Shown: piece after piece, positions 163 through 42,119 of the stretch | How positions within the stretch are numbered: the first letter of the stretch is position 1 | How the letters are laid out: each line of letters starts with the position of its first letter | NCBI GenBank assembly: GCA_046483205.1 | Contig: JAWODS010000237.1 | Span: 1 to 50,914 of the forward strand | Direction: 5' to 3' | From: Armatimonadota bacterium | GTDB lineage: Bacteria; Armatimonadota; Zipacnadia; Zipacnadales; UBA11051 | Length of the DNA stretch: 50,914 bases | Notes under the pieces: generated by a model | What the model was told of the DNA's origin: nothing | Seen by the model: the letters and a program-made list of their open reading frames with translations, nothing else | Databases searched by the model: none | Made by a program: the position numbers and the translations under genes

Positions 163-1671
163 ATGCCACAGAATTACCGGATCGTCCTGGCAGTCGCAGT
201 AATCGCCGTGCTTGTTATTGGCGGGTGTGGCGGAGGTGGAGGAGGGAACGGAACCACACCTGCAGTGCCGGATGTGCCCGATGACCTTGCCGCATCAGAT
301 CCTGAAAAAGTCGAAACGGATGACGACACCGGGCTCGAGGCGGCAAACAATGAATTTCTCGTCGTTTTGAACGCATTAGACGGCCAAAGTGCGGACGATG
401 TCGCCAGCGTCACTAATGCGCAACTGGTTGGAGCAATTCCGGAAATCAATCTGGCACAGTTCCAGTTGCCTGAGGGTTCTGATCTAAAAGATGTGCAGCA
501 GGCTGTCGAAACCGCCCAAGATGACCCGAACGTAGAATTGGCTTCTGCGAATTGGCTGTTGAAATCTTCGCAGTACTATCCGGAGGATGGTTATGGTTTC
601 GAGAGTGGCGATTGGGATATGGACAACCCGGGCGGAAATAACTGGGGGCAGGAGTTTATTCGCCTGCCGTATGCCTGGGATGCATCAACCGGAGAGTCCA
701 CGTGCAAAATAGGCATCATCGATTTCGGGTTTGATGTTAGTCACACTGAACTTGCATCCAACGTAAGTCAGGTCTATCAAATCGGGCTGATAACTCCGCA
801 CGTCACCTCGCAAAAAGGAATTGACCATGGCACACATGTCACCGGCATTGCTGCCGCAGTCGGCAACAACGGGGAAGGCATTTGCGGTGTTGCACATTCG
901 TGCACGGTCGAATGTTACTGGCAATTCGGGTTCGCTGGCCAGGCTGCGAAAGCCCTGGTTGATGCTGCTAACAGCGGCTGTCGGGTGGTTAATTACAGCG
1001 GCGGACTCGCCTGGGACCATCTGCCTGGAGGCACACTCGACGAGGCAAGTCTGACCGTCGTCGAAGGAATTTTGCGTGCCGCTATAGGATACGCGGCAAG
1101 CAAGGGAACACTGTTTGTGCAATCAGCCGGTAACGGTGTGAGCGATCCCAACGGCAATGATGATATAGTTCCCCCTGATTATGGTGTGCCATTCGATGCA
1201 CGCTGGAATGGCGGACCCGGGGCGGAGGATGAGCTCTCAAACTATGTCGTGGTCGGCAACTCGACTCGCGATGCCGCTCTCTACCATAGCAGCAATTTTG
1301 GCCCTAATGTAACAGTCGCTGCGCCGGGAGACGGTATCAAGAGCTGTGTCAGTGGTAACGGCTATGCAACCTACACCGGCACTTCTATGTCGGCACCCTT
1401 TGTCACCGGATTGGCAGCACTGTGCTGGTCTGTTGATCCCTCCCTGACTCCCGGGCAGGTCAAAGATATGCTAATCCAGGGCGCGGAGGCCGCCGGTCAT
1501 TCGCTTGACGGCGGCAATTTCTCCATCATCGATGCCTGGGAAACAGTGCAGCAAATACCAGCTACCGGAAATATCACTATCAGTCAGCTTCAGGAACCAC
1601 TTTTGCAGCCAATTTCACTTCGAACCGCTGATGTGAGCAGATTCGGTCAATTGACAAGGGAGGGTTCATAA
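163..1671 (+). CDS. Secreted subtilisin-family (MEROPS S8) serine peptidase, probable lipoprotein
   Basis: ORF 19..1671. S8 triad motifs are present: IGIIDFGFD (Asp), HGTHVTGIAAAVGN (His) and GTSMSAPFVTGLAAL (Ser). I set the start at ATG 163. It is preceded by GGGAGGGAG and followed by a lipoprotein-type signal (LAVAVIAVLVIGGCGGGG). The 19..162 part begins at TTG and looks non-coding. Confidence 0.85.
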   Translation: MPQNYRIVLAVAVIAVLVIGGCGGGGGGNGTTPAVPDVPDDLAASDPEKVETDDDTGLEAANNEFLVVLNALDGQSADDVASVTNAQLVGAIPEINLAQFQLPEGSDLKDVQQAVETAQDDPNVELASANWLLKSSQYYPEDGYGFESGDWDMDNPGGNNWGQEFIRLPYAWDASTGESTCKIGIIDFGFDVSHTELASNVSQVYQIGLITPHVTSQKGIDHGTHVTGIAAAVGNNGEGICGVAHSCTVECYWQFGFAGQAAKALVDAANSGCRVVNYSGGLAWDHLPGGTLDEASLTVVEGILRAAIGYAASKGTLFVQSAGNGVSDPNGNDDIVPPDYGVPFDARWNGGPGAEDELSNYVVVGNSTRDAALYHSSNFGPNVTVAAPGDGIKSCVSGNGYATYTGTSMSAPFVTGLAALCWSVDPSLTPGQVKDMLIQGAEAAGHSLDGGNFSIIDAWETVQQIPATGNITISQLQEPLLQPISLRTADVSRFGQLTREGS

Positions 1672-3014
1672 TGGATTTGCGACGATTTTCACCGTTGTTG
1701 TGGATTCTTGCAGTCGTTGCTGTCGCAGTTTTTGCTGGCTGCGGGGGGCATTCATCCGGGGGGCCGAGTGCCGGACACCAGACCGTCGCCCCGGAGGGCT
1801 ACGGAACTGTCGAGTTCACCATTGACTGGCCGGAGGAAGTCAATCCGGCATATCTCCCGGCCGAGATGAACCGCGTTGTCATCTTCGTCAGTGCCGAAAA
1901 TATGTCACAGCCACGAGCGTTTATCGCCAACCGGCCTGATACCGGTGGGTCGAGCACGTTCACGGTTGACGGGATACCCTCCGGTCACAGGCGGCTTTTC
2001 AGCGCTCAGGCCAGAAACGTCCCGAATCCGGGCTCACAGAGCACGATTGATGACCCCACGCATTCGCAGCTCGTCGAGGGTGACATCCTTGCCTCCGGAA
2101 CGGCCGGCCCGGTGGATGTGTTGCCCAACGCCGTCATCGATGTGGACATCACCATGGAGCGACCTGCCGCACCGGATCCCGGGGATAGCGATGTGGACGG
2201 AAATATCAACCAGGTTCTCAAAGAATCCTTCCCCTCCGTGGTCGTTTTTGAGCTGTTTCACGACCAGGACGGCAATCCCATCACGGATCTGAATGCCTCC
2301 AACTTTCGTGTGACGGAGGACGGTCAGCCGTGTGTGGTCACCGATGTCCGGACGGCATCGCAGGCTCAGACACCGATATCCGTGAGTCTCGTTCTGGACC
2401 GCAGTCCCAGCATGTCTGGTTCGAACGAGGAACTGGAGGCTGCCGCATCGGAATTCGTCAATCTGATGGGGTCGCAGGATCAGGGCGAAATTGTCAATTT
2501 CGCCTCCGATATCTCAGTTGATCAGACATTCACGACCGATAAACAGCTTCTGCAGAATGCAATCGATAACTGGGATTACCTCGGCGGCTGGACGTCGCTG
2601 CACGACGCCGTGGCGGTGGGGGCTGAAGATGCCTATCATGTCGGGGGACGCTCCGCTGTGGTCGCCATGACCGACGGCGAGGAAAACGAAAGCGACAATT
2701 ACCCCTATCTATCTGATCTGCTGCCTTTTTTGCGGGGGCTGGGAGTTCCCGTCTTCTGCGTCGGACTCGATTCCGCTGACGAGGACGCTCTTGAGCAGAT
2801 CGCGTCGGAAACCGGCGGGCTGTATCACTACGCGCCGGACGCCTCGCAGCTTCAGGACATCTACGAGGCGGTTTCAGGGCAGCTCGAAGGGCAGACCCAG
2901 ATCTTCTTCATCAGTCCCGACCCGACGGTTTCGGGGCGCACGAGGACGGTCGAAGTCACCCTCATCAACTACGGCGGCTTCAGCTTCAGCCGCACGATTG
3001 ACTATACCATGTGA
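1671..3014 (+). CDS. von Willebrand factor type A (vWA) domain lipoprotein
   Basis: N-terminal signal plus lipobox (VAVFAGCGG). MIDAS-type vWA core: SLVLDRSPSMSGS ... WTSLHDAV ... VVAMTDGEENESD. The ATG overlaps the stop of the S8 gene (TAATG). AAGGGAGGG lies 6 nt upstream. Confidence 0.8.
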   Translation: MDLRRFSPLLWILAVVAVAVFAGCGGHSSGGPSAGHQTVAPEGYGTVEFTIDWPEEVNPAYLPAEMNRVVIFVSAENMSQPRAFIANRPDTGGSSTFTVDGIPSGHRRLFSAQARNVPNPGSQSTIDDPTHSQLVEGDILASGTAGPVDVLPNAVIDVDITMERPAAPDPGDSDVDGNINQVLKESFPSVVVFELFHDQDGNPITDLNASNFRVTEDGQPCVVTDVRTASQAQTPISVSLVLDRSPSMSGSNEELEAAASEFVNLMGSQDQGEIVNFASDISVDQTFTTDKQLLQNAIDNWDYLGGWTSLHDAVAVGAEDAYHVGGRSAVVAMTDGEENESDNYPYLSDLLPFLRGLGVPVFCVGLDSADEDALEQIASETGGLYHYAPDASQLQDIYEAVSGQLEGQTQIFFISPDPTVSGRTRTVEVTLINYGGFSFSRTIDYTM

Positions 3015-3232: not shown

Positions 3233-4240
3233 ATGTCTGTGGCGACAGTGAAATGGGGCATCGTCGGGTGTGGCGATATTGCGCAGAAGGCGGTCGCGCC
3301 CGTGATGACACAGGACGTGCATTCGACGATTACGGCCTTTTGCTCCCACGATCTGCAGCGCGCGCGGGAACTGGCTGACATGTTCGGTGCCGACGCCGCC
3401 TATGATAATTATGAGCAGATGCTGGCCGATGACCGGGTTGAGGCAATATATGTGGCTTCACCGGTGCACCGGCACTGCACTGAGACGGTGCAGGCATGCC
3501 GGGCTCAAAAGCATGTGCTGTGTGAAAAGCCGATGGCGCTGACGACGGATGAGTGTCGGCAAATGATTGAAGCCGCTCACGAGGGCGACGTGCACCTGGA
3601 GATCGCCTACTGCCGGCGCTTTTGGTCCAAAACACAAAAGATGAAGGAGCTTATTTCCGACGGTGCCATCGGCCGCCCGCTGTCTGCGCGCCTGCGGGTG
3701 GGACGGCTGTACAACCCGGCGCCTGACGATTACAAGCACTGGCGCGTGGAGATGGACAAAGCCGGTGGCGGCTCGATGCAGGATGTCGGGAGTCACCGTC
3801 TCGATGTGATGTGCTATCTGCTGGGGGCTCCAGTCCGGGCGGCAGGCCTGTTTGATACTTTCGTAATGGGCTACGAGGTGCCTGATACCGAGACGCTGAT
3901 GTGCCAGTTTGAAGGCGGCACACATCTTGTGGCCGAGGCCAACTGGTGTATCGACAGGATGTATGATGAGTTCGAGGTGCGGGGGAGCAGGGGCACGCTC
4001 CTGGCGACGCCGTTTGACGGCCCGACGCTTCGGCTGGACACGTATGACGGGATCGAGGAGTTCGAGGTGCCCGAGCCGGGGGGATACCGCCACCGCCCGC
4101 TGATCGAGGAGTTCACCGATGCCGTCTCCGAGGGCCGCACGCCTGCATATTCGGGTTATGACGGGATGCTGACGACGGCGATCATCGATTCAGCCATGGA
4201 GAGTTGTGAGAGCGACCAGTGGGTTGACATTGACGTGTAA
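3233..4240 (+). CDS. Gfo/Idh/MocA family NAD(P)-dependent oxidoreductase
   Basis: N-terminal Rossmann signature KWGIVGCGDIAQKAVAPVM, then the family-typical EKPMALT segment. The start is ambiguous: GTG 3230, ATG 3233 or GTG 3239. The AAAGGAG at 3224-3230 is best spaced for 3239. Confidence 0.85.
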   Translation: MSVATVKWGIVGCGDIAQKAVAPVMTQDVHSTITAFCSHDLQRARELADMFGADAAYDNYEQMLADDRVEAIYVASPVHRHCTETVQACRAQKHVLCEKPMALTTDECRQMIEAAHEGDVHLEIAYCRRFWSKTQKMKELISDGAIGRPLSARLRVGRLYNPAPDDYKHWRVEMDKAGGGSMQDVGSHRLDVMCYLLGAPVRAAGLFDTFVMGYEVPDTETLMCQFEGGTHLVAEANWCIDRMYDEFEVRGSRGTLLATPFDGPTLRLDTYDGIEEFEVPEPGGYRHRPLIEEFTDAVSEGRTPAYSGYDGMLTTAIIDSAMESCESDQWVDIDV

Positions 4241-4249
4241 AGTCTGGCG

Positions 4250-6106
4250 TTATTGCCCGGGCTGGTGGCCGAGGCTCCTGATGATGAGCTGATTGATCAT
4301 CGTGCCCAGTCGGGTGGGATCCATCGCTCGTCCGCTCGCCAGCCGGCCCCGGAGGACCACGATTTCAGCGACCTCGCGTGCCATCTGCATTTTGGCTTCT
4401 TTGACCGTCTCGAGGAGCGAGCGGATGACGGGGCAGTCGATATTGAAGTGCAGGATGGTTTGCGGTGTCCCGCTCGATTCCGCCGAAAGTGTCCGCTGCA
4501 GGGCATCTCGAGCTTCTGAGGGGATGGCTCCGCTGACCTGGCTGAGCATAAAGAGCTGCTGAATCTGTGGCCGCATCTCATCATCTTCGACAGCCGTGAG
4601 AATGCCGGGCAGCGACGTGGGCTGGAAGCGTGCGGGCCGCGCCGTCACAGGGGGATCGAGCCCGGCGAACAGATCAACCACCGGCTGATACCGTTCGTCG
4701 GCCACCTCCTCGACCACCGGCCTGCCCGGGGCGTCAATCTTCACCAGTCGCACGGCCGGGTTCATCCGGTCATATTTATGCAAAACCGCCTCATCCAGCC
4801 CGGTGCTGGCATCAATGATCGGGATCTCTCTGTGCCGAAGCGTGCTGTACGACGCTTCGAAGGGGACAGATTGATAGTGGATGATGGCGTCGCCGCCGCG
4901 CTGCTGGACCTCCGCCAGGTACTGCGGGATGGTCCGGGGGCCGTTATTTGTATTGAAGCTCAAGTGATCGACGGCGGTTTCGAAGAAGGCGTCATTTTCC
5001 ATGGCCGCAAGTTTGACAAGCTGATCGTGGCGTTCGGCGACGTGGCTGAACTGGCCCGGGTCCTCCAGCAGCGTGTTTGAAAGATGCCGCAGCAGAAACG
5101 CCTCCAGCCGCTCCCGAAGGCCGGCGATATCCATCCGCGCGGGGCCGGGGCGGGATTCAGGATCTGTATCCAGCACATCCACAATACCCCGGAAAAACCT
5201 CGCCCATGATGGCAGCAGGTCGGGATGATCCTTCTTTACCAGAAGCCTGCGATGATATAGGTCGGCGACACCGAGAGCATCTTCAAACACCCGCAAGTCT
5301 TCCCCCGGAATCCACAAAACTCCCCGCACCTGCAGAGTCCCCTCGTCGATTTTCAGTGGTACCACCAGAAGTGGGGGCGGGCGCTGTGGAAAGTGGCTGC
5401 GCAAAAAGGCGGCATGATCCTCTTTTGTCGAGCCCTCCTGGTGCCACGGCGGAGACATGGTGTTGACCTGCCGGTCCCGCCAGAGAATGGGGAACTGCAG
5501 GTATTCGCCGCATTCACGCAAAAGCTGTGGCAGGTGACCGGGATCACACAACTGCGCAAACTCGCGCTTGAGGTGCAGTTGTATTGTGGTGCCGACGCTG
5601 CTACGATCCCCGGGGCCGGTTTCCAGGGTGTTGTCGCCTGCATATCGCCAGCGCCAGGGCGTGGTGTCATCGCCCTCGGCAAGACTGTCTATAATAATCT
5701 CACGAGAGGCCACCGTGGCCCACAAAACGGCCCGGAGGAATGAGCGAACTGCCTGGTAAATGAGCTCTGCCTCCCGGGCACCGCGGGGGCCGGCCATCCG
5801 CGAGGGTGCCACTGTGCCGAGGGCATCGATTGTCCGCTGGACGTCCTCACGCTCCAGGCCCGGGCCGTCAACGTGGATGCGGAGGGTGCGCGTCTCCGGA
5901 TCGGCATCAACGCGAATACCCAGCCCCATTTCCGATGGTGTGATTCCTTCGGCCGCGGCATGGTGCGCCCGGACGGCATTGGCGTCGGCGGCGTGAGACA
6001 GCAACGCGCGAGCGACCATACCTTCATCACAGCAGAAGTCGTCACAGACAACCTCCATTAAATTCTCCAGATCGACCTGCAGGCGTCGTTGGTCCATGTC
6101 AGCCAT
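4250..6106 (-). CDS. Divergent Hsp90/HtpG-family paralogue with substituted ATPase motifs (putative pseudo-ATPase)
   Basis: Collinear with bacterial HtpG by eye:
- RALLSHAADA (cf. RELISNASDA)
- LRIHVDGPGLEREDV (cf. LTISDNGVGMTRDEV)
- VGTTIQLHLK (cf. RGTEITLHLR)
- LLPSWARFFRGIVD (cf. FMPNYLRFVRGLID)
- ILHFNIDCPVIRSL (cf. IFELNPDHVLVKRA)
I set the start at ATG 6106 (MADMDQ...). It overlaps the upstream stop in ATGGCTGA. The 6107..6256 extension in the track lies inside the upstream gene. Confidence 0.75.
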   Translation of the reverse strand: MADMDQRRLQVDLENLMEVVCDDFCCDEGMVARALLSHAADANAVRAHHAAAEGITPSEMGLGIRVDADPETRTLRIHVDGPGLEREDVQRTIDALGTVAPSRMAGPRGAREAELIYQAVRSFLRAVLWATVASREIIIDSLAEGDDTTPWRWRYAGDNTLETGPGDRSSVGTTIQLHLKREFAQLCDPGHLPQLLRECGEYLQFPILWRDRQVNTMSPPWHQEGSTKEDHAAFLRSHFPQRPPPLLVVPLKIDEGTLQVRGVLWIPGEDLRVFEDALGVADLYHRRLLVKKDHPDLLPSWARFFRGIVDVLDTDPESRPGPARMDIAGLRERLEAFLLRHLSNTLLEDPGQFSHVAERHDQLVKLAAMENDAFFETAVDHLSFNTNNGPRTIPQYLAEVQQRGGDAIIHYQSVPFEASYSTLRHREIPIIDASTGLDEAVLHKYDRMNPAVRLVKIDAPGRPVVEEVADERYQPVVDLFAGLDPPVTARPARFQPTSLPGILTAVEDDEMRPQIQQLFMLSQVSGAIPSEARDALQRTLSAESSGTPQTILHFNIDCPVIRSLLETVKEAKMQMAREVAEIVVLRGRLASGRAMDPTRLGTMINQLIIRSLGHQPGQ

Positions 6107-8375
6107 TTTCACCCTCCGGTGGCAGCGCCCCGATCCACCATTCCCACAAACGCTGCAGCGCCTGGTGTCGGCTTTCGTCCATTGATCGCACCAGTTGGTC
6201 CCACACCCATGACGGCCGGCTGGGAGAGGCGAACGGTTCCTGTGGCTCCCACTCACGGACGCCGGCGGCGGGCCACGGATCCACGTAAATCACGTGCAGA
6301 TTGCGCCCCCGGCCATATTCTCTTTCGCAGAACTCCTGCAGATACGCCTGGTCTTCATCCGCCAGCTCGCCGCCTGCAGAGGGGCGCAGTGCAATCAGGA
6401 TCCAGGCGTCCTCATCGGGGCTGTGCACGAGATAGGTGAAATCAGGCCACGGGCGATCGTGATGATGCTGTGGCGATTCATCTTCAAGGCGGACTCCAAC
6501 CGCCAGCAAACCACTGTGCAGCAGGTGGGTTAAATCAAGACCCGGCGGCACCGAACCGTAGTCGCTGCGCCCGAGTGTTTCGCGGAAATGGAAGGTCAAA
6601 AGCTCCCGGATAACTCCGGCGGCGGCCGAGGCGATGTCGCGGGCAAGCTGTTCGAAAAACTGCCGTGCGGGGATGTTGGTCTCCGGCCCGGCGGCCACAA
6701 AGGGGACCCACCGGCGAATGTCAATAACGGCTGTGTCCGCCTGCCCGGTTTCCCCGGGCTCGTCGTCGAAAGCTCGCTTCAGGAGGATGTGACCTTCGGT
6801 CGGCACCTCGTCGGGGGTGGCGATATCGGCCCGCACGACCGTGTCGCGATGGCTCAAACAGCGGCGCGGTCCCGGCGCCCGGTGGATGGTAACGGCGCCG
6901 GAGGCAGCAGTATTTTGCAACACCGCCCTCCAGTTCACCCCATCCGGGCCCATCGGCCGAAGCCCCTCACGGCCGGTGGAGGGGGAGGGCGGCAGGCGCA
7001 ACACTTTCTGAAGCTGCTCGGCAACAGCCCCGGAGAAGGTGTAGGAGGTGTCAGTTTCAGACATCTGGTGCCGCATGAACCGCGCCTCATCACGCCTCGC
7101 CCGCCGGATGCTGTCGATCTGTTCAGAGCTGATGGCGGACAGCCGGTTATGGGTCTGAGCGAGGATGGCCGGTATGTTGGAGACGAGGCGCATGATCGCC
7201 GGGTCCTCGAAAATTTCACGGGCAGTGGTCAGGGCGTCGCTGGCCGCGAGAATGCTCTCCACGATCGCATCCCCCGGTCGTATGGCCACCGGCTCGCGGT
7301 CTCCGCGCATGTAAAGCACGGGAGCCAGTACATCAGCCGTCGAGGCCCCGCTACTTTCTCGCAGGTATGTGCGCGCCCTTGCCACCGCCACATCCACAGG
7401 CTTGCTGGTACCGAGGGTTGCATAGAATCGCTCGACAAACGGCAGGATTCCGGTTTTCACCGCGGGCTGTCCCTGGCAGGTGATCACCGCACCGACCGGC
7501 AGGTGCTGCATCAACTGCTCCGCAAATTCACACCCGGCGGTTGGCGAGCCCGGAGTGCTGAGGAATATCAACTGCAGTTCTGAAAAGCCGCCGTTGGTGA
7601 GACCAGCGGCAAATTCACCAGCGCTCACCGTCCCCTGCGGCAGCACCAGGCGCGGACTGTCCCTGTCGGCCTTCCCGATGACATGCAGCACCTGCACGCT
7701 CTGCTCCGCGATGTGAGCGAGCTGTGCCTGCAGACGATCCGCAGTGGCCGCATAGCGCATGTCTGTAAGCTCGATGCTGGGCAGCCGGCGGCGAACAATC
7801 GCGTCATATTCGGACGCGGCCTGGCGCTCCGCCGGGAGGACGTGTCGGGGGAGGAGAGAAATGGGTGCGACCCGCCACACACCGACGGGCGGGACGTGCT
7901 GGCCGACGTGCGGCGACAGGGGATTCGGTGGTTCCGGAACGTACCGGGCCAGCGCAAGGGGATTAAGCGCCTCGCCCATGAGCGCTTCCAGCGGGCAGCC
8001 GGGAAACGTAAACGGGCGCCCACCACAGGTATGGACTGCCACCCTGGGGGGAAGGACGTCGGCGTCCTCCACGGCCCGGCGGTACACTGTCAGTGCCTCT
8101 GTGTTATCCCCCCACAGCCACTGCCCCACAACATCTTCTGAGACATCCGGTGACAGCATGGGGGTTTGCTCGAGAATATGCTCAAGCGTCATGTCCAGGG
8201 TCCGCTCCCCGAGGTCCAGCCACTGCGCCCCTGTATCGAGGATGAAGCGGGCGCTTATCTGCGCAACATCGCCGTCACACGGGGGGCCGTCGTACTCGTA
8301 GCTGCATTTGTCGTCGCCGTACTGACTGCAGCGTCCGGACCCGAAGCAGATTGTGATACGCACCGCTTCCAGCAT
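6099..8375 (-). CDS. Large (758 aa) hypothetical protein with a central CHAT-like (caspase-fold) region lacking the expected His/Cys
   Basis: Long intact ORF starting at ATG 8375. Residues ~165-345 follow the CHAT pattern: ...ATADRLQAQLAHIAEQSVQVLHVIGKA ... LQLIFLSTPGS ... VGAVITCQGQPAVKTGILPFVERFYATLGTSKPVDVAVARARTYL. The HxxGH position reads HVIGK and the LSaC position reads LSTP. The N-terminal ~60 aa are Cys-rich. I could not assign the C-terminal ~400 aa. Confidence 0.6.
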   Translation of the reverse strand: MLEAVRITICFGSGRCSQYGDDKCSYEYDGPPCDGDVAQISARFILDTGAQWLDLGERTLDMTLEHILEQTPMLSPDVSEDVVGQWLWGDNTEALTVYRRAVEDADVLPPRVAVHTCGGRPFTFPGCPLEALMGEALNPLALARYVPEPPNPLSPHVGQHVPPVGVWRVAPISLLPRHVLPAERQAASEYDAIVRRRLPSIELTDMRYAATADRLQAQLAHIAEQSVQVLHVIGKADRDSPRLVLPQGTVSAGEFAAGLTNGGFSELQLIFLSTPGSPTAGCEFAEQLMQHLPVGAVITCQGQPAVKTGILPFVERFYATLGTSKPVDVAVARARTYLRESSGASTADVLAPVLYMRGDREPVAIRPGDAIVESILAASDALTTAREIFEDPAIMRLVSNIPAILAQTHNRLSAISSEQIDSIRRARRDEARFMRHQMSETDTSYTFSGAVAEQLQKVLRLPPSPSTGREGLRPMGPDGVNWRAVLQNTAASGAVTIHRAPGPRRCLSHRDTVVRADIATPDEVPTEGHILLKRAFDDEPGETGQADTAVIDIRRWVPFVAAGPETNIPARQFFEQLARDIASAAAGVIRELLTFHFRETLGRSDYGSVPPGLDLTHLLHSGLLAVGVRLEDESPQHHHDRPWPDFTYLVHSPDEDAWILIALRPSAGGELADEDQAYLQEFCEREYGRGRNLHVIYVDPWPAAGVREWEPQEPFASPSRPSWVWDQLVRSMDESRHQALQRLWEWWIGALPPEGENG

Positions 8376-8499
8376 TACTCAGTCCCTTATACCGTCCGTG
8401 CTCACCGTTATCGGTTAAAGGTCATGCACAACATTGTGTCTTTTCGCCGGCGGGTTGCATTTCTCCTGCGTCCCCCACGCTTCTCCGGGCGCCACGGAC

Positions 8500-8528
8500 T
8501 TGGCATAATAAAGCCGGGGATGTATAAT
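8500..8528 (+). promoter_or_regulatory. Near-consensus sigma70-type promoter for the activase gene
   Basis: TTGGCA (8500-8505), a 17-bp spacer, then TATAAT (8523-8528). It lies in the divergent spacer ~70 nt upstream of ATG 8596. The -35 has one mismatch to TTGACA and the -10 is perfect. Confidence 0.5.
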
Positions 8529-8537
8529 TATTATCCT

Positions 8538-8563
8538 ATGCCTCCCTACAGGGGGCATTTTTT
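8538..8563 (+). promoter_or_regulatory. 5' leader stem-loop followed by a U-run (attenuator-like or mRNA-stabilising hairpin)
   Basis: ATGCCTCCC-TACA-GGGGGCAT forms 8 bp with one bulged T, followed by TTTTT (8559-8563). It lies between the predicted -10 and the GGGAGGA ribosome-binding site at 8582-8588. Confidence 0.35.
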
Positions 8564-8595
8564 GGAGAAACAGCATTATCCGGGAGGACCAAGAT

Positions 8596-11500
8596 ATGCA
8601 TCGACCATATTATCTGGGGATAGACGTTGCCTCAGTTAGTGTGGATACCGCGGTTATCGACGCAGACACACACGAGGTACTCGAGGCGGAATACATCCGG
8701 CACAACGGCCAACCCATGAGGACGGCGGCCAACGCCATCCGCGACATTGTTGACCGCTATGGCGAAGCCGAGCTGAAGGGCATGGCGGCTACAGGTTCTG
8801 GTGGTCGTGTCATCGCCCGGGTCCTTGGCGCAGGGTTTATTAACGAGGTCGTGGCGCAGGCCAGCGCGGTAACCAACCTGTATCCCGAAGTCCGCACAAT
8901 TGTTGACATCGGTGGCGAGGATTCCAAGCTCATCTTCATCGGGCCCTCCGCCCAGGACGGGACACCCGAGTTGAAAGATTTCGCCATGAACACCCGCTGT
9001 GCCGCCGGGACCGGAAGCTTTCTGGACAAGCAGGCCTCCCGTCTCGGATTGAGCATCGAGCGGTTCGGAGAGATCGGCGCCCAGGTGGAGGATCCGCCAC
9101 GAGTCGCCGGACGCTGCAGTGTTTTTGCCAAGACCGATATGATCCATCTGCAGCAGAAGGGCACTCCCACCAACGCCATCGTCGCCGGTGTGTGCCATGC
9201 GCTGGTCCGAAACTTCAAGAGCACCGTGGCCACGGCCAGAGAGCTGAAAACTCCCATCGCCTTCCAGGGCGGCGTAGCGGCAAACGCCGGGATCCGCACG
9301 GCCATGGTCGAGGTCATGGAGATCGATGACGACGATCTCGTTATCCCCGAGCACTTCGGCTGCATGGGCGCCATCGGAGCAGTACTGAAGGGCATTGAGA
9401 CCGGCGAAGCCACCGCCCCCGACCTCGACAATCTCCAGAGACTTGATTCGTACGAGGAAGTTGCCGACACGGCGCCACTGAAGCCGCTCAAGCTCGAGAA
9501 GTCCACCATCATGCCCTCGGAGATTCACACGACTCGGGTGAATACCAGTGACCTGATACCGGCCTACCTGGGGATTGATGTGGGCTCGATTTCCACCAAC
9601 CTGGTGGTGATTGACAGCGACGGCAACCTGATGACCAAGGCGTATCTCATGACTGCCGGTGAGCCCCTGGAAGCCGTTCGCACGGGCTTGAAAATGATGG
9701 AAAAAGACGTCGGCGGCCTCGTGGATATCCGGGGTGTGTGCACCACCGGCTCCGGCCGCTATCTGACAGGCGATTTTGTCGGCGCCGATGTCGTGAAAAA
9801 TGAAATCACCGCCCACGCCCGGGGTGCGCTGTTTATTGACCCGAACGTGGACACGATCTTCGAAATCGGCGGGCAGGACTCCAAGTATATCAGCCTGCAA
9901 AACGGCAGCGTCATAGACTTTATGATGAATAAGGTCTGCGCGGCCGGAACGGGATCGTTTCTGGAGGAGCAGGCCGAGAAGCTGGATATTTCCATCAAGG
10001 ACGAATTTGCCGACCTCGCCCTGCAATCCGACACACCGCGCGACCTTGGCGAACGCTGCACTGTTTTCATGGAGACGGAAATGGTCAAGCACCAGGCGGC
10101 GGGCGCCACCACCGGCGAGCTGGTCAGCGGCCTGGCGTATTCGATCGTCAAAAACTACCTGAACCAGGTCGTCGGCAAACGCCGCATCGGAGACCACATC
10201 TTCTTCCAGGGCGGCACCGCATTCAACAAGGCTGTCGTCGCCGCCTTCGAAGAGGTCACCGGCAAGCCGATCATCGTCCCCCCTCATCACGAGGTCATGG
10301 GCGCCATCGGCTGTGCCGTCATCGCCATGGAGAACGACACCGGCGAGGGCAGCACCTTCCGCGGCTTCGATTTGAGTGAGCGCAATTACGAGGTCGAGAG
10401 CTTCATCTGCCACGACTGCCCCAATGAGTGCGAAATAAACGTGGTGAAGATCGAAAACGAAGAGCCCCTGTATTACGGCAGCAGGTGCGGCAAGTACGAT
10501 GTCGATCAATCGGAGAAGGAAAAGACGGATCTCCCGGATCTGTTCAAAGAACGGGAAAAGCTGCTCTTGCACTCTTACAAAGGGGAGCCGGATATTCCCG
10601 AAGACGCCCCGCGTGTCGGGGTTCCCCGCGCGCTTCTTTTCCATGACCTGTACCCGTACTGGCACGCGATGCTGAGCGAGCTGGGCTGCGAAATCGTGCT
10701 GTCGAATAAGACCAACAAGAGGATCCAGCACGAGGGCGCCGAGCGATCCGTCGCCGAGACGTGCTTCCCGATGAAAATCGCCCTGGGGCATATTTATAAT
10801 CTCGTGCGGGACAAAAACATTGACTACATCTTCCTGCCCAGTGTCATCAACCTGGAGAAGCAGGACCACGAGATGAACGACAGCTTCGTTTGCCCGTATT
10901 CGCAGAGCATCTGCTACACCAGCCGCGCCGCGGTGGATTACGATAAATACGGTGTGAAGGTCCTGGCGCCGACGGTGTATTTCGAATACGGCCACAAACA
11001 CCGGATGAAGGCTTTCGGCGAGATGGCTGAGCGGCTGGGAGCGACAAAAGCCGACCTCTCTCGGGCGCTGGAAGCCGGTGACGAGGCTCTTGAGTATTTC
11101 CGCACCGAAAAAGTGAAGCGAGGGAAACAGGTCCTCGACCAGCTTGGCGACGACGAATACGCCATTGTCGTCGTCAGCCGATCGTACAACGGCTGCGATC
11201 CGGGTGCAAACCTGGAGATACCCCAGAAGATTCGGGAGATGGGCGTGCTGCCGATTCCCATGGACTACCTCCCGCTGGATGAAGTGCAGCTGCGTGGCGA
11301 CTGGTGGAATATGTACTGGCGCTACGGCCAGCAGATTCTCGCGTCGGCAGAAATCGTTTCCGAAGACGCGCGCCTGTATCCCATCTATATCACCAACTTC
11401 GGGTGTGGTCCGGATTCGTTCATTACCCAGTTCTTCCAGGAGCGACTGGGCGGCAAGCCCATGCTGATCATGGAAGTTGACGAACACTCCGCAGACGCCG

Positions 11501-12819
11501 GGATGATTACACGCTGTGAGGCGTTTCTAGACAGTATCGAGGCCACCCGCGGGATGACCTACAGCCCCGGACGCGAGTTCCGGCCACTGACGATCACGCG
11601 CTCCAGCGACCGGGAGATGCTGATACCGAACATGAGCAGCCACGCCTATGCCCTGGCGGCCGCCTTCAGAGCCTCGGGCATGGACGCCCGACCGCTTCCG
11701 GAGCCGGACGAGGAAACCCTGGAATGGGGACGCAAGCATACCACTGGCAAGGAATGCTTCCCCTGCGTGGTTACCACCGGCGATATGGTGAAGTTCGTCC
11801 ACAGCGACGAGTTCGACCCCGACCGGCACGCCTTCTTCATGGGTGGCTCCGGCGGACCCTGCCGCTTCGGGCAATATAACGCCCTGCAGCGGATGGTGCT
11901 GGATGACCTGGGATACGAAGATGTTCCCATCTACGCGCCCAACCAGAGCTCCAGCTTCTTCGACGACCTTGGCATTGTTGGCCGAAAGTTCCTGCTGCAG
12001 GGATGGCGGGGACTGGCGGCCATGGACATGATCGAGAAGGCCCGCCGCGAGTTCAAACCGTACGAAGTCAACGAGGGCGAAACCGAAAAAGTCTTCCTGG
12101 AGTGCCGCGACCTGATCGAGCGTACGCTCGAAAAGAACGGCAATCTCGTCGAGGCGATGCAAACGGCGGCGCAGACATTTGCCCGTATCGAGGTGGACAG
12201 ATCAGAGCAGAAGCCCATCATCGGTGTCACCGGCGAGTTTTACATCCGGCAAAACGATTTCAGCAACCAGAACCTCGTCGAAAAGATCGAGGAGCTTGGC
12301 GGAGAGGTGTGGATCGCGCCTGTCGAGGAGTGGTTTTTGTACCGCAACTTCCGGCGCGACATGCGGGCGAAGCTGGACAGCGACTGGATACTGCGCCTGA
12401 AAAACGTGGCCATGGACTGGTTTATGAAACGCGAGGAGCACGCTCTTGTTGAGCCGTTCAAGGATATCCTGCGAAGCGCGGAGGAACCCTCCAGCATGGA
12501 AGTGCTGGAAATGGCCGAACCGTACCTGGACCGCAGCTTCGAGGGCGAGGGTGTCATGACCATCGGCAAGGCCATCGACTTCGTGAACAAGGGCCTCAGC
12601 GGTATCGTGACGGTCATGCCCTTCACCTGCATGCCCGGGACCGTCTCACACGCACTGATGCGGCTGGTGAAAGAGGAGTATGACGGGATTCCGACACTGA
12701 ACATGGTGTACGACGGTTCCGAGCAGTCGACCGCGCAGACGCGGCTGGAGGCGTTCATGTACAGCGCCCGCGAGTTCATGCGCAACCACAAAAAAGACCA
12801 GCAGACCGCCGCACACTGA
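8596..12819 (+). CDS. BcrAD/BadFG-type CoA-enzyme activase fusion protein (two ATPase modules plus DUF2229/HgdB-like C-terminal region)
   Basis: 1407 aa. Two acetate/sugar-kinase-fold activase modules each carry the cluster-ligand motif CAAGTGSFL (RCAAGTGSFLDKQA and VCAAGTGSFLEEQA) and a DIGGEDSK / EIGGQDSK phosphate loop. The long C-terminal part matches the architecture of 'acyl-CoA dehydratase activase-related' giant fusions. ATG 8596 is preceded by GGGAGGA. Confidence 0.9.
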   Translation: MHRPYYLGIDVASVSVDTAVIDADTHEVLEAEYIRHNGQPMRTAANAIRDIVDRYGEAELKGMAATGSGGRVIARVLGAGFINEVVAQASAVTNLYPEVRTIVDIGGEDSKLIFIGPSAQDGTPELKDFAMNTRCAAGTGSFLDKQASRLGLSIERFGEIGAQVEDPPRVAGRCSVFAKTDMIHLQQKGTPTNAIVAGVCHALVRNFKSTVATARELKTPIAFQGGVAANAGIRTAMVEVMEIDDDDLVIPEHFGCMGAIGAVLKGIETGEATAPDLDNLQRLDSYEEVADTAPLKPLKLEKSTIMPSEIHTTRVNTSDLIPAYLGIDVGSISTNLVVIDSDGNLMTKAYLMTAGEPLEAVRTGLKMMEKDVGGLVDIRGVCTTGSGRYLTGDFVGADVVKNEITAHARGALFIDPNVDTIFEIGGQDSKYISLQNGSVIDFMMNKVCAAGTGSFLEEQAEKLDISIKDEFADLALQSDTPRDLGERCTVFMETEMVKHQAAGATTGELVSGLAYSIVKNYLNQVVGKRRIGDHIFFQGGTAFNKAVVAAFEEVTGKPIIVPPHHEVMGAIGCAVIAMENDTGEGSTFRGFDLSERNYEVESFICHDCPNECEINVVKIENEEPLYYGSRCGKYDVDQSEKEKTDLPDLFKEREKLLLHSYKGEPDIPEDAPRVGVPRALLFHDLYPYWHAMLSELGCEIVLSNKTNKRIQHEGAERSVAETCFPMKIALGHIYNLVRDKNIDYIFLPSVINLEKQDHEMNDSFVCPYSQSICYTSRAAVDYDKYGVKVLAPTVYFEYGHKHRMKAFGEMAERLGATKADLSRALEAGDEALEYFRTEKVKRGKQVLDQLGDDEYAIVVVSRSYNGCDPGANLEIPQKIREMGVLPIPMDYLPLDEVQLRGDWWNMYWRYGQQILASAEIVSEDARLYPIYITNFGCGPDSFITQFFQERLGGKPMLIMEVDEHSADAGMITRCEAFLDSIEATRGMTYSPGREFRPLTITRSSDREMLIPNMSSHAYALAAAFRASGMDARPLPEPDEETLEWGRKHTTGKECFPCVVTTGDMVKFVHSDEFDPDRHAFFMGGSGGPCRFGQYNALQRMVLDDLGYEDVPIYAPNQSSSFFDDLGIVGRKFLLQGWRGLAAMDMIEKARREFKPYEVNEGETEKVFLECRDLIERTLEKNGNLVEAMQTAAQTFARIEVDRSEQKPIIGVTGEFYIRQNDFSNQNLVEKIEELGGEVWIAPVEEWFLYRNFRRDMRAKLDSDWILRLKNVAMDWFMKREEHALVEPFKDILRSAEEPSSMEVLEMAEPYLDRSFEGEGVMTIGKAIDFVNKGLSGIVTVMPFTCMPGTVSHALMRLVKEEYDGIPTLNMVYDGSEQSTAQTRLEAFMYSAREFMRNHKKDQQTAAH

Positions 12820-13440: not shown

Positions 13441-14871
13441 TTATTGAGCAGGTGAAGAGAGAATGTCGGCAATATGCTCCTCGGTTGCTCGCACCTGTTC
13501 AATGATGGCGCCGGCTTCTATAAATCGCGTGGCGAGCTCTTCATCAGTGAGATTCGCCGCACTGTCGGGGTCCGGTATCGGGAAATTATCCTGCAGCAGA
13601 CTCACTTCGGTTTCAAAAAGCGCGGCCGTTTTCAAAAGCACGCCGGCGAGCTGTGGGGCAGCGGTTTGTGCGCTGCTGCGGCAAAATGTCGCCGCCAGGG
13701 TCCGGCCGCCTATCAGCGATTTCCGGGGGCCGGCCGCCCACACCAAAAGCTCGTTCATCCGCTCGCGGTTCATCTCGGTTCCGGCCTCGTGGAGATCTTC
13801 GCCAAGCTGCACCAGGCCCCGTATGCCGGGAATGAGGGGGCCGTATGTGCGGGCGTCGGTCATGACCCGGGAGGCCTGCCGCAGCGTTTCGACAGTCATC
13901 TTTGGCCTGTCCTGCGACTGTTCAACCGGCGTGATGGTGATGAGGGGATAGGTCCCCTTACTCTTCGGATCGCCGGCGGGATACAGTGTCCTGTAGGGGC
14001 CCTTCCACCGTGATTCGAGATCCTGCCAGCCGTACTGCTGTGCCCCGACAGGAGGTATCTGCACCGACAGCGCGTTCGTCTCCTTATCTGGAGGTGCGCT
14101 GATGAGGCCCCACACAGCTTCATCGTAGGAGGCGAAAACAGGAGACTGTGGCGGTCTCATGGCGATCATGCAGACTTTTCCGGCGTCCAGTGCCGCTTTC
14201 AAATGCCCTGCCGCATCTGTTGCCTGGCGGTCCTGGTGGGTTTCAATCTGCAGGCCAAGAATGCGGCCGGCCGCCAGCACCGGGTGGTGGTAGTATGGCC
14301 GCATCGACCAGTATTGTGGCAAATCGACATTGTAGGTGAAGGCAAACGCATCACCGCTCAAAGCGCTGACCTCCGCAAGGGAAAGCTGCAGGCCCGCTGC
14401 ACGACTGATAGCATCGGCAAGCACCGGCCCGTGCGAGCCGCCTGTGACGGAGAGCTTGATGTTACTAAATGACGTGCCGCTGAGAGTGCAGTGAGCCATG
14501 TCCGTCCCCGCCAGGTTCGTATCCAAAAAGGTCGCACCGCTTAAATCGGCATCCGAGAAGATACAGCCGGACAGATTTGTGTCGCGAAAGATGATCCCCC
14601 GCAGCGTCGCATCGGAGAAATTCGCCCCCTGAAGATCGGTTCCCACAAAGATGCCGCCACGCAGGTCCGCTCCCGACCAGTTCGTATCGGAAAGCTGGAC
14701 ATCACGGAAGCTGGTCGCCGGCAGTGTCGCCCCCGACATATCGCCGCCCGGCTGCAGGCGTGCCTCTTCTTTGAGGGCGGACAGTTCATTGACGAAAGTG
14801 ATATCCCCTGCCCGGGCCGGGAAGGTCGAAGCCACGGCGATAATCAATATGATACAGGAACGAAGCCTCAT
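13441..14871 (-). CDS. Secreted pentapeptide-repeat protein with a large uncharacterised C-terminal domain
   Basis: Signal peptide from ATG 14871 (MRLRSCIILIIAVASTFPARAG). About 100 aa of A(D/N)LxG-type pentapeptide repeats (GADLRGGIFVGTDLQGANFSDATLRGIIFRDTNLSGCIFSDADLSGATFLDTNLAGTDMAHCTLSG). The remaining ~330 aa are unassigned. The track's 20-codon N-terminal extension is not needed. Confidence 0.75.
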   Translation of the reverse strand: MRLRSCIILIIAVASTFPARAGDITFVNELSALKEEARLQPGGDMSGATLPATSFRDVQLSDTNWSGADLRGGIFVGTDLQGANFSDATLRGIIFRDTNLSGCIFSDADLSGATFLDTNLAGTDMAHCTLSGTSFSNIKLSVTGGSHGPVLADAISRAAGLQLSLAEVSALSGDAFAFTYNVDLPQYWSMRPYYHHPVLAAGRILGLQIETHQDRQATDAAGHLKAALDAGKVCMIAMRPPQSPVFASYDEAVWGLISAPPDKETNALSVQIPPVGAQQYGWQDLESRWKGPYRTLYPAGDPKSKGTYPLITITPVEQSQDRPKMTVETLRQASRVMTDARTYGPLIPGIRGLVQLGEDLHEAGTEMNRERMNELLVWAAGPRKSLIGGRTLAATFCRSSAQTAAPQLAGVLLKTAALFETEVSLLQDNFPIPDPDSAANLTDEELATRFIEAGAIIEQVRATEEHIADILSSPAQ

Positions 14872-15024
14872 CCATATCACCTCGTCGGCTGTGTCGAAAA
14901 GCCGGTGGACTATTATGTGGTTGGGCGTCATCAGCCCCTCGATGCCTCCTTCAGGCAGGCTCGGGAGGGGATTGTACCAATGAGTGGGTCTTGTCTGCAG
15001 GACTAATAAAGGAGTATACTATCA

Positions 15025-18000
15025 ATGCTGGGAAAATATAAGGGCATCGCAATCAATAAATCGGAATACAGGAGGAGATCCGGCGTGGTCAACTCCAGCA
15101 AATCCCGACGGGCATGGTCGTGTGTCCGCGCGTCTTATGTGCTCATCGCAGCAATGGTCGCATTCCTGTCTGTACCGGCCTTTGCACAAAACAACGGCCC
15201 GGTGGAACTCGAAACGGTATCCCCGCAGATGTACACGATCAACCGGCCCGACGGCACGGCTGTCACTGTGCCCGACGAGGCGGCTTCTGGACAGATACTG
15301 GTGCAGATGACCCGCATGGCCACCCGGGATGACCTCGCGCGCGTGCTGGCTCAAACCAACACCGAAGTGCTTCACAGCTACCGCACCCCGGGGCTTTTTT
15401 TGCTGCAGCTTCCTGAAGGGCAAAGTGTTGTTGACGCCCAGCGAGAGCTGTCGGGGATGCAGGGCGTTCAATACGCTGCGCCCGACCGTGTAAAGCATCT
15501 CTTCCGCACGCCCAATGACACCGATTACACCCAGCAGTGGCACTACCCCGTGATCGCCGCCCCGGATGCGTGGGACATCCAGACCGGCTCCTCCTCAACC
15601 GTTGTCGCGGTTATTGACGACGGCATTCAGCTCGACCATCCCGACCTTTCGGGCAAGATCTGGGTTAACACCGGTGAAATCCCGGATAACGGCATCGATG
15701 ATGACGGCAACGGATATGTCGATGATGTCAACGGCTGGGACTTCATCCAGCGCAATAACGATCCGAGCCCGAATCCTGTGGATGGGGCCGATGACGTGCA
15801 TCATGGCACACATGTGGCCGGTCTCATCGGTGCGATGACCAACAATATGGAGGGTGTCGCCGGCATGGACTGGGGCTGTCGGCTCATGGCCTGCCGGGTA
15901 TTTCATACGGGCATGGAAACACTTGACAGCCACGTGATGGCGGCCATCGAGTACGCTGTGGACAACGGTGCCGACATCATCAACATGAGCCTCGGAGGCG
16001 GCTACAACCCGGCGTACAATCCGATATTCGCAAACGCCGTGGAGCAGGGGGTTCTGCCGGTTGCGTCGGCCGGAAACTTTGGCTACGCATTCACAGACAA
16101 CCCCGATGAGCCAAACCGTCCGTGGTTGTCGCCTGTGTGTAATGATGGCGAAGATTTCGTTGACAACAACGTGCTGGGTGTGGGAGCGACCGGCCGCAAC
16201 GACATCGTCGCCGATTTCTCAAATCTCGATGCATCAGCCCGCAACTTCGTGGACGTCATGGCCCCCGGCGTGGAGATATACAGCACACTGTATTACGACC
16301 CCGAGTATCCCGGCGGCACATACGGCAGGCCCTACGGCTGGCACACCGAGAACGGAGAGGTTATGAGCGGCACCTCCATGTCGTGTCCCATTGTTGCCGG
16401 CCTTGCCGCGATCATTCGGGCTGAATTCTCGCAATTCAGCCCTGAGGGGCTTATCACACAGATCCGCGCCGCAGCCGAAAACATCGACGAGGAAAATCCG
16501 CAGTATGCCGGGCAGATGGGAGAGGGCCGTATCAATGCCGTCAACTCTCTTGTTGACCAGGAGCCCCGCCTGCCCCGCACCTTCTCAGCATTCGACAAGC
16601 CCAATGACGACGGCGGATATATCCAGGTCGTCTGGCAGCATTCTCCCGACGACGGCGCGGGCTTCGATGATGTCACCGGCTATATGCTGCAGCGAGCAAC
16701 CGACGCCGAAGGCCCCTGGACCACGCTGGAAACGTATGAGCCCGGCGGAGAGACGCAGTATGTTGACGCCGTCGGTGAAGATGCGCCTCCGTACTATTAC
16801 CGCCTGGGGGTCAGCGACGCTTCACAAACCGTCTATACCGCCCCGGTCGGTCCCGTGGAGGCGCGTGACGACACGCCGCCGCCGGCCCTGGCCGAAGGTG
16901 AGCTTGTCGCCGGTGATGTCCAGGGCGATGATGGTGGAGCCATCCAGTTGAACTGGGACGCATACACCCCACCTGATGATTTCTTCGCATACCGCGTCTG
17001 GCGGGCAAAGGAGCCGTTTGACGATGTCACCAACTTCCCGGAGCCCCTGGACAGGATTCTGGACGATGAGCAAAAGAGTTATACTGACCACAACGACGTC
17101 CAAGACGGGGTCGAATATTACTACGCCGTGACCGTCCAGGATGAGGAGACCCCACCCAACGAGATTATGCAGGTGAACGCCGTGGGTCCGGTTGTGGCCA
17201 GTCCGAACTTTACCTTCAGATACCCGGCCGGGCTTTCGATGATCGCGATCGGCGCGACGCCTCATAATTCCAATATGGGAGCCATTTTTGGTGTTGAGAA
17301 CCCCGGTGACCTGCAGCTCGCACGCTGGGATCCCACCGCCCAGCCCGACGGTACCTATGTGGTGTACTCGCAAAGTCCCCAGTCGCCGTTCCTCCAGCAG
17401 CGTCTCGGGCGCGGCTTCTGGTATCGAACACCGGTGCAAAAGCCGCTCAATATCAGTGGCATGCCTGCACCGGAGGGCCGTGTGTCGGTCAATGTCAGAA
17501 AGGGCTGGAACCAGCTCGGCAACCCCTACACCGCCGATATGCCCCTCGAAGGCGCCCAGGTGGAAGTTCTTGGAACCATGATGTCGCTTGAGCAGTCAGA
17601 TGATAATGGATACACCCGGGATTACGTGTGGCGCTATGACACCTTTACAAACAGCTACAAGCTGGTCAGCGCGACACTGCCCTTCCTGCCGGAGAGCCAG
17701 CGCTCTATTCCGAGGGGCGAGGGCTTTTACTTCCGGTCGCTGACTGACCAGGTGACACTGTATCTGCCCCGCCCGACGGTTGAACAGGCCAGCAGCCAGC
17801 GGGCGCCTGCCCCAAAACCGCAGGTGGATGAGAACAACTGGGCCCTCAGGCTGCAGGCCGCAATGGCCGATCAGGCGGATGTTGACAACTTCATCGGCGT
17901 CAGTCCACAGGCCGAAACATGCAGCAATGTGGCCAGCCCGCCGCACATTGACGGCGGCGTGGATTTGAGCTTTGTGGATGATAGTGGCAACAAATCGGCC

Positions 18001-24262: not shown

Positions 24263-24757
24263 ATGCCAGAAACGATTACCGAAATTAGGCATCGCGTGCT
24301 CGAGGACGACCAGATATTCAAGTGCCACCTGTTGCGCCGTGGCGCCGACTGGGTGGTCGTGCGGTATGTGAACCCGGAGGATAACGAGGTCGGGGGTGTG
24401 ACGATTCCTGCGGGCTCCATCACGCTCGCACACTACGAGCAGGACGCGGAGGCCGTGTGGTGGGAGATGTTTTATCCCAACGGCGACAGGCTCGCCGACC
24501 TTATCCATCTCGCGTCGCCCGTGATGGTGGGGCCCGAAACCGTTGAGTACACCGACCTGCTCCTTGACATCTGGCAGCCCGCGGATGCAGAGCCGGAAAT
24601 CCTCGACGAAGACGAGCTGGACGAGGCGGTGCGCGAAGAAGCGCTGACCGAGGAGGCCGCCGAACATATCCGAGAAATCACCCGAACAATCGCAGGCGAT
24701 ATCCCCGCTCACGCCCCCCGCCTGTGGCGGCAGCTTTCCCCGGAGGATGAGGAGTAG
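24263..24757 (+). CDS. DUF402 (FomD/Ntdp-like nucleoside di/triphosphatase fold) protein
   Basis: Pattern YTDLLLDIWQPADAEPEILDEDELDEAV resembles the DUF402 core (DLxLDv...vlDedEl). The ATG is 2 nt after the EamA stop, and AGGAGG lies inside the EamA 3' end. Confidence 0.6.
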   Translation: MPETITEIRHRVLEDDQIFKCHLLRRGADWVVVRYVNPEDNEVGGVTIPAGSITLAHYEQDAEAVWWEMFYPNGDRLADLIHLASPVMVGPETVEYTDLLLDIWQPADAEPEILDEDELDEAVREEALTEEAAEHIREITRTIAGDIPAHAPRLWRQLSPEDEE

Positions 24758-24806
24758 TCCGCCCGGGTTCCCCTCACCGTCCGACGGTGAAATATCACGC
24801 TGTCGG

Positions 24807-34871: not shown

Positions 34872-34923
34872 AGAAGGGTTCCGAGAAGGGCATTGTGGTG
34901 CCATTTTGTGTGGAGGTGTGCTG

Positions 34924-35943: not shown

Positions 35944-35965
35944 GCAGGTTGCCGGGATACTGGAT

Positions 35966-41992: not shown

Positions 41993-42119
41993 CGGGGTGA
42001 AGACTGCTGCCGGGGCCGGCGGTGGGTAATGTCTGTCATACGGTGTCCCGGAGCATCCGTAAACCCGCTGCATTGTGACGCCAGAGTCCTGATTTATCTG
42101 TACAGAGAGTACTGCGTTT

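Follow-up and report, generated by a model that had tools for sequence, protein, structure and literature searches.

Here we describe two neighbouring genes, designated X and H, on the minus strand of a 50,914-nucleotide (nt) stretch of DNA from an Armatimonadota bacterium (contig JAWODS010000237.1, positions 1 to 50,914, assembly GCA_046483205.1; hereafter the window). Protein X is predicted to contain a caspase/CHAT fold that has lost its catalytic residues, and protein H is an Hsp90 paralogue that has lost its ATPase residues. The X-H pair is a real, vertically inherited module of two pseudoenzymes, and it represents an undescribed combination built from known kinds, namely the Hsp90 superfamily and the CHAT/caspase fold. 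In our preferred reading, to which we assign a probability of about 0.45, this obligate and co-translated pair would form a complex of fixed stoichiometry that works without ATP as a scaffold or holdase. The genes and their parts, with lengths in amino acids (aa) and with model confidence from AlphaFold2 (AF2) as the predicted local distance difference test (pLDDT), are as follows.

6099..8375, minus strand: gene X, 758 aa, a predicted CHAT-derived pseudoprotease with an orphan C-terminal half (open reading frame and translation).
7281..8258, minus strand: predicted caspase/CHAT fold of X without catalytic His and Cys, residues ~40-365 (AF2, Foldseek, profile search and hhalign).
6534..7280, minus strand: long helices of X and a variable beta-rich insert, residues ~366-614 (AF2 pLDDT <50 to ~65).
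6216..6533, minus strand: small alpha/beta domain of X, residues ~615-720, order alpha-beta-beta-beta-alpha-beta (AF2 pLDDT 73-90).
6123..6215, minus strand: Trp-rich C-terminal helix of X, residues ~721-751 (SWVWDQL ... RLWEWWIGAL).
6099..6117, minus strand: translational-coupling junction, with GGAGG at 6117-6113, the ATG of H at 6106-6104 and the TGA of X at 6101-6099.
4250..6106, minus strand: gene H, 618 aa, a predicted Hsp90-family pseudo-ATPase.
5492..6106, minus strand: predicted degenerate Bergerat (GHKL) N-domain of H, residues ~1-205 (alignment).
4253..5491, minus strand: predicted Hsp90 middle and C-terminal (dimerisation) domains of H, residues ~206-618 with approximate boundaries (collinearity with TRAP1).

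A first-pass annotation, made from the sequence of the window, had proposed two overlapping minus-strand genes that are very likely made as a unit, and both parts of this proposal were borne out. The coordinates, the flanks and the 8-nt overlap (ATGGCTGA on the window minus strand) are as it described them. The list of open reading frames gives H in a longer GTG form (4250..6256), while the 618-aa form begins at the ATG at 6106; the N-termini of X and H match those of homologues at 36-81% identity. The junction reads ...CCGGAGGGTGAAAATGGCTGA from X into H, and its GGAGG ribosome-binding site lies six nt upstream of the H start codon, within the last Pro-Pro-Glu codons of X. Every one of the 21 loci recovered, from 14 distinct lineages, has H as the next gene downstream of X. 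The overlap of the type ATGnnTGA is retained in 10 of the 14, and lineage L021 carries GTGTCTGA. Three of the 14 have an X-H spacer of 48-65 nt with a GGAG of its own, and the terminal Pro-Pro-Glu of X is replaced there by Arg-Val-Glu. This tripeptide was considered as a protein motif and rejected; it exists because of the embedded Shine-Dalgarno sequence, and it is gone where the spacer supplies one. On the far side of H, a convergent oxidoreductase gene of the GFO/IDH/MocA family (hereafter GFO) ends at 4240, nine nt from the H stop codon, and on the far side of X a divergent gene for a 1407-aa BcrAD/BadFG-DUF2229 protein (hereafter BcrAD) starts at 8596, 220 nt from the X start.

As a separate observation, the L021 locus (L021:10240-10600, from a metagenome-assembled genome labelled 'candidate division WS1') contains a direct duplication of ~328 nt across the junction between the X 3' end and the H 5' end. 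It copies the last ~55 codons of X and the first ~56 of H, and the intact H gene begins at 10589. The duplication may be either an assembly artefact or real.

The two proteins also evolve together. Their pairwise identity matrices correlate with r = 0.86, and the ratios of nonsynonymous to synonymous substitution rates (dN/dS, here and below calculated between the window and locus L014) are 0.133 for X and 0.143 for H, compared with 0.072 for the BcrAD neighbour. Both are thus confirmed as real genes under purifying selection. Over the same lineages BcrAD retains 70-76% identity and GFO 51-62%, while X and H retain 35-43%, so that divergence of the pair runs at about twice the pace of the flanking genes. 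The order BcrAD-X-H-GFO is nevertheless kept at one chromosomal location in lineages whose X and H proteins share only 35-43% identity, which argues for vertical inheritance and not for island turnover. The flanks are not invariant: threonyl-tRNA synthetase (ThrRS) takes the place of BcrAD beside X in the L008/L015 lineage of Ca. Zipacnadia, where the pair persists, and GFO is absent in several lineages (L003-type, L017, L021).

The family is very small. X forms seven protein clusters among 5.8 billion proteins, and a further search with the X alignment returned no new members. X occurs in 10 of 185,579 GTDB species genomes, nine of which are labelled Armatimonadota, Armatimonadia, Ca. Zipacnadia or WS1 and one simply 'bacterium'. 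The X-H pair was recovered in seven metagenome loci, and no viral contigs with the pair were found. The conserved co-occurrence on which the first-pass annotation had staked its proposal is therefore present in the surveyed loci, with H next to X wherever X was recovered, and it is confined to a single clade of Armatimonadota.

Sequence alignments confirm H as an Hsp90 paralogue, predicted to keep the three-domain architecture including the C-terminal dimerisation domain. The NCBIfam HtpG model (NF003555) matches H at 7e-41 almost from end to end (H residues 6-607 on model positions 2-613 of 614), and the best relative of solved structure, TRAP1, aligns over its full length (E = 2e-25, H 6-615, reaching TRAP1 residue 653 of 672). 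The Pfam HSP90 model covers only residues 209-311 (5e-12, 45.9 bits versus a cutoff of 24.4). H falls well below the HtpG equivalog cutoff (140.4 bits versus 371 in NF003555) and below that of the 'HSP90 family protein' model (122.6 bits versus 455 in NF010683). The H family consists of ~11 clusters at no less than 37% identity, and its next relatives show at most 26%. The HATPase_c-type Pfam domain was not found in the H family in precomputed Pfam assignments, while it is present in the distant relatives P0019-P0027.

The ATPase motifs of Hsp90 are substituted throughout the H family, as the first-pass annotation had noted for the window protein together with its collinearity to HtpG over the N, middle and C domains; the alignments with TRAP1, HtpG and the family agree on both points. 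In the alignment with canonical relatives, the motif RELISNASDA becomes (R/Q)xLLxxAxDA. The position of the catalytic Glu is occupied by Ala, Val, Ile or Cys in 10 of 10 family members, and that of the Mg-binding Asn by His, Cys, Tyr, Ser or Leu, with Asn surviving in P0015 only. The Gly-rich lid GQFGVGF is missing across the family, the DxGxG motif reads VDGPGL in the clade of the window, and the middle-domain loop with the catalytic Arg (NISRE) gives way to variable sequence (DTDPESRPGPAR and the like) in every family member. Judged from these alignments, the residues for ATP hydrolysis (catalytic Glu and middle-domain Arg) are gone and those for ATP binding (Asn and Gly-rich lid) are very probably gone as well, and an ATP-driven clamp cycle would therefore be impossible for H. 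The distribution of constraint along the protein is uneven: residues 1-100 are the least constrained (dN/dS 0.30) and residues 201-300 the most constrained (0.079).

Several comparisons place the N-terminal half of X in the CHAT group. The AF2 model of full-length X is poor overall (mean pLDDT 52.6, with more than half of the model below 50), and residues 200-360 reach 70-90. Foldseek comparison of this model with PDB retrieved SAVED-CHAT (8tl0) at 1.4e-7, separase at 8.8e-5 and caspases-7, -6 and -3 at 6e-4 to 1e-2. When 1.84 billion representative proteins were searched with an X family profile, eight family members came out first, followed by ~740 proteins at E<=1e-3, with CHAT proteins at 3e-9 and weaker. 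Among the best 150 of these ~740 matches, nearly all align to X residues ~180-360, and 9 of 9 checked among the best carry Pfam CHAT. The hhalign comparison of X with CHAT gave 95.8% over 251 columns and also 94.7%. Pfam CHAT (PF12770) itself is sub-threshold on the window protein (13 bits versus 24, E = 0.07), and matches seven of nine X family members with a best E of 7.9e-5. No usable X match was obtained in sequence searches of PADLOC, NCBIfam and PDB, whether the query was X alone or the family profile.

The alignment of all X members with eight bona fide CHAT proteins shows the catalytic His position as Lys, Gly, Asp or Gln (HFIGHG reads H(V/L)I(G/A)xx) and the catalytic Cys position as Pro, Gln, Ala, Phe or Val (LNAC reads LS(T/A/V/G)x). 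The first-pass annotation had described X as CHAT-like without the expected His and Cys. Fold search, reverse profile search, hhalign and the CHAT alignment confirm this for every member, as far as sequences and the model can tell, and in the absence of the His-Cys dyad X would therefore be unable to cleave. The most constrained part of X, residues 301-400 (dN/dS 0.039), corresponds to the p10-like part of caspases. Together, the tight p10-like part of X and the tight junction of the H N and middle domains, set against the loose N-terminus of H, fit a pair of proteins that have retained binding surfaces and lost their enzymatic sites. Two other candidates concerning X were rejected. The proteins P0089 and P0060 resemble X in length and share the CHAT domain alone, and so are not distant full-length relatives; P0089 combines CHAT with PAP2, and its short contig carries no Hsp90 gene beside it. 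A zinc ribbon formed by four Cys near the N-terminus of X was rejected because these residues are not conserved.

The C-terminal half of X is an orphan. For residues ~366-614 no relatives outside the family were found in Pfam, PDB or the search of 1.84 billion representatives, although the segment includes a conserved R590xxLxxHF motif. The small alpha/beta domain that follows has the invariant residues D632, D699 and W701, of which the two Asp are the only invariant acidic ones. Foldseek comparison of the C-terminal half with PDB and BFVD gave nothing below E = 1e-3. The sub-threshold matches of the alpha/beta domain (E >= 0.01) are enriched in both databases for PD-(D/E)xK nucleases, including CinB, Hjc, Shedu, Cap4, DdmD and RecU (E >= 0.027, probabilities <= 0.6). 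The family alignment contains no conserved D...(D/E)xK motif in this domain and no conserved (D/E)xK in its third strand, and no Pfam nuclease family matches X. The Trp-rich helix at the C-terminus is invariant at the protein level over the 14 lineages while its third codon positions vary, and the constraint therefore acts on the protein.

We compared the pair with known systems that contain related parts. No described Hsp90-CHAT pairing was found in the literature, PADLOC, NCBIfam or Pfam, in agreement with the first-pass annotation, which knew of none. HtpG and TRAP1 are of the same length class as H and collinear with it in the N, middle and C domains; they differ from the H family in the catalytic Glu, the Asn (P0015 excepted), the GQFGVGF lid and the Arg loop, all of which the family lacks. 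In addition, H has an obligate, translationally coupled partner, whereas we know of no co-chaperone of bacterial HtpG. The CHAT proteases, including SAVED-CHAT of the cyclic-oligonucleotide-based antiphage signalling system (CBASS) and of type III CRISPR, the TPR-CHAT protein Csx29 of Craspase, HetF and separase, share the caspase/CHAT fold with X, which keeps the motifs PxE(A/L)L, VLHxI, LxLVxLS, PAVxxxQ, F..FY..L..G..D.A...AR and PVLYMR. Unlike them, X is without the dyad and without a SAVED, TPR or STAND partner domain, and no cyclic-nucleotide or CRISPR genes were found near it. Pseudo-caspase scaffolds such as the N-terminal caspase-like domain of Raptor, cFLIP and the separase pseudo-protease domain are eukaryotic proteins that resemble X in keeping a caspase fold under purifying selection once the dyad is lost, which suggests a role in binding or scaffolding. 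They are homologous to X only at the level of the fold, and as far as we are aware none is encoded in an operon with an Hsp90 paralogue.

Shedu nucleases occur with either CHAT or GHKL/Hsp90-like N-terminal sensor domains as alternative fusions to an active DUF4263 nuclease (bioRxiv 10.1101/2023.08.10.552793). They resemble X-H in linking CHAT and Hsp90-like GHKL domains to a PD-(D/E)xK-fold domain, and the Shedu structure 8ti9 is among the weak matches of the X C-domain (E 0.4-1.2). They differ in that X-H has neither a DUF4263 match nor the catalytic motif, and consists of two separate genes at a vertically inherited locus. Bacterial 'HSP90-like' proteins without the family marker residues were already noted by Chen et al. 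2006 (PMC1525184).

A wider link between Hsp90 and CHAT was considered and rejected, given that the next-nearest Hsp90-like proteins adjoin a TPR partner and not a CHAT protein. Such pairs were found in Kitasatospora sp. RG8 (L012:8001-12464) and Deltaproteobacteria bacterium Smac51 (L013:8001-12379). Their Hsp90-like members are PRK14083-related, are the nearest relatives outside the H family and score under the PRK14083 cutoff, as H does by a wide margin; in contrast to H, they keep the ATPase motifs (ELVQNAHDS, GxFGLGF). The arrangement is like that of X-H in joining a non-canonical Hsp90 paralogue to a similarly sized adjacent partner (770-790 aa). The partner differs from X in being TPR-rich, in lying downstream of its Hsp90 and in being non-homologous (hhalign probability 0.4%). 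The two TPR partner proteins are 34% identical across two phyla, and an Hsp90 paralogue with a dedicated TPR partner may represent a second, wider module.

In our preferred reading, coupled translation would supply X and H in fixed proportion, and the two would come together in a stable hetero-oligomer, for which an H dimer bearing X is plausible. The Hsp90-like dimer would work without ATP, as a scaffold or holdase, X would recognise peptides or clients through its dead caspase groove, and the Trp-rich helix is a candidate docking element. The role would most likely be a lineage-specific function in proteostasis, assembly or regulation, and not proteolysis, ATP-dependent folding or mobile immunity.

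Four points weigh against this reading. First, the Asp at the adenine-contacting position is kept (DDGxGL or DNGIGM) in most H lineages outside the clade of the window and, given this Asp, some ligand binding by H stays conceivable. Second, rapid evolution such as that of the pair is seen in conflict genes too. Third, the faint nuclease-fold resemblance of the C-terminal alpha/beta domain of X could hide an activity. Finally, inter-protein covariation would need more than the ~14 lineages, and the X-H complex is one that we infer.

The closest competitor, which we consider unlikely, confines the output to one of the two proteins: H would be a private chaperone or stabiliser of X as its sole client, or X would be an adaptor of H in the manner of a co-chaperone. 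This explanation suits the strict co-occurrence and the translational coupling, the low pLDDT over more than half of the X model suggests flexible or partner-dependent folding, and the nearest other Hsp90-like subfamily likewise has a conserved large partner, the TPR protein of 770-790 aa. However, the low pLDDT may simply reflect alignments of 7-9 sequences, and a chaperone without ATPase activity would be limited to holdase action. To the present analyses, the private-chaperone and stable-complex models look alike.

The lean of the first-pass annotation was towards a role in conflict or abortive infection. In such a conflict or defence system, or in a domesticated relic of one, the CHAT- and Hsp90-like parts would do the sensing or regulation, and the C-domain of X would be a non-canonical, nuclease-like effector set free by infection or proteotoxic stress. 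Immune systems often contain CHAT domains, and the top structural match of X is SAVED-CHAT; the Shedu architectures, the sub-threshold nuclease matches of the X C-domain (Shedu, Cap4, DdmD and CinB) and the divergence of the pair at about twice the rate of its flanks all point in this direction. The expected signatures are nevertheless missing. Foldseek on the X C-domain never reaches E = 1e-3, neither the D...(D/E)xK motif nor a Pfam nuclease match is present, and PADLOC has no match for X or H. The protease dyad and the ATPase motifs are dead in all members; an intact catalytic effector was not recognised; the locus has a fixed housekeeping position across deep lineages, with no defence or mobile neighbours and no viral copies; and the dN/dS values of 0.13-0.14 show no diversifying signal. 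The lean towards defence is thus not upheld, and we regard such a system as unlikely.

It is still less probable that X-H serves the divergent BcrAD protein, which resembles acyl-CoA dehydratase activases, for instance in its assembly or maturation. The divergent layout with a shared intergenic region of ~190-375 nt is found in 11 of 14 lineages. On the other hand, the L008/L015 lineage keeps the pair beside ThrRS, BcrAD-type proteins occur widely and X-H only in this clade, and the adjacency may be no more than inherited synteny. The shared region also conserves the promoter hexamers of BcrAD alone. That H is an ordinary HtpG and X an unrelated neighbouring CHAT protease can be practically dismissed: H does match the HtpG model end to end, but at 140 bits versus the 371 cutoff, with H motifs and X dyad lost family-wide, and with complete co-occurrence, a conserved overlap and matched evolutionary rates.

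The intergenic region on which the BcrAD comparison draws is the following feature.

8376..8595, no strand assigned: divergent intergenic region with a sigma-70-like promoter for the BcrAD-type gene.

The promoter (TTGGCA-17-TATAAT, 8500-8528, plus strand) serves the BcrAD-type gene, and its two hexamers are the only invariant blocks over 11 aligned intergenic regions. No conserved promoter for X was recognised in 8376-8595. A conserved operator or RNA element was considered here and rejected, with only the BcrAD hexamers conserved and the Rfam search empty. In the window, a stem-loop with a T-run (8538-8564) lies downstream of the promoter in the 5' leader of the BcrAD-type gene. This gene (8596-12819, plus strand) encodes a fused BcrAD/BadFG protein with two activase-like ATPase domains, followed by DUF2229/HGD-D.

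Outside X and H, the window contains no htpG, no defence genes and no Rfam match, and encodes ordinary carbohydrate, cell-wall and protease metabolism. The G+C content at 4001-8000, which holds X-H, is 0.62-0.64 compared with a window average of ~0.60, and does not have the look of a foreign island. Three plus-strand subtilase (Peptidase_S8) genes with fervidolysin-like prodomains are located at 19-1671, 15025-18543 and 18775-22215; two of their products exceed 1100 aa and have FlgD-Ig or fn3 tails. The first subtilase gene is overlapped at its stop by a VWA-protein gene (1671-3014), and neither the subtilase genes nor the VWA gene were seen again at the other X-H loci examined. A 496-aa pentapeptide-repeat protein is encoded between the BcrAD-type gene and the subtilases (13441-14931, minus strand). 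Open reading frames of 228-653 aa without a Pfam match were found at 22263-23312, 24747-25646, 32910-34871, 34753-35943, 35882-36568, 41075-42178 and 42225-43628; some overlap others on the opposite strand or in another frame, and they may not all be genes.

A broader and more speculative scenario, which we hold to be rather improbable, is that X-H is a bacterial Hsp90 pseudo-chaperone, an ATP-independent clamp loaded by a pseudo-caspase adaptor. The pair would then be the first known case in bacteria of an Hsp90-family protein that has an obligatory partner subunit, and it may derive from a CHAT-GHKL-nuclease conflict system that was domesticated in one Armatimonadota lineage after the loss of all three activities. 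Taken with the Hsp90-TPR pair of Actinomycetota and a deltaproteobacterium, it would imply that bacterial Hsp90 paralogues gained dedicated co-chaperone-like partners repeatedly.

The practical weight of the finding is limited by the tiny size of the family and its restriction to uncultured Armatimonadota. Its interest lies in what it may say about Hsp90 and caspase-like proteins in bacteria. Bacterial Hsp90 (HtpG) is generally seen as co-chaperone-free and strictly ATP-dependent, and dedicated co-chaperone-like partners of Hsp90 are not known from bacteria. X is a candidate for a rare bacterial pseudo-caspase, a kind of protein known mainly as a eukaryotic scaffold. H, with its ATPase residues lost lineage-wide, maintained by purifying selection and always co-translated with one partner, offers a natural experiment on the abilities of a nucleotide-free Hsp90 scaffold.

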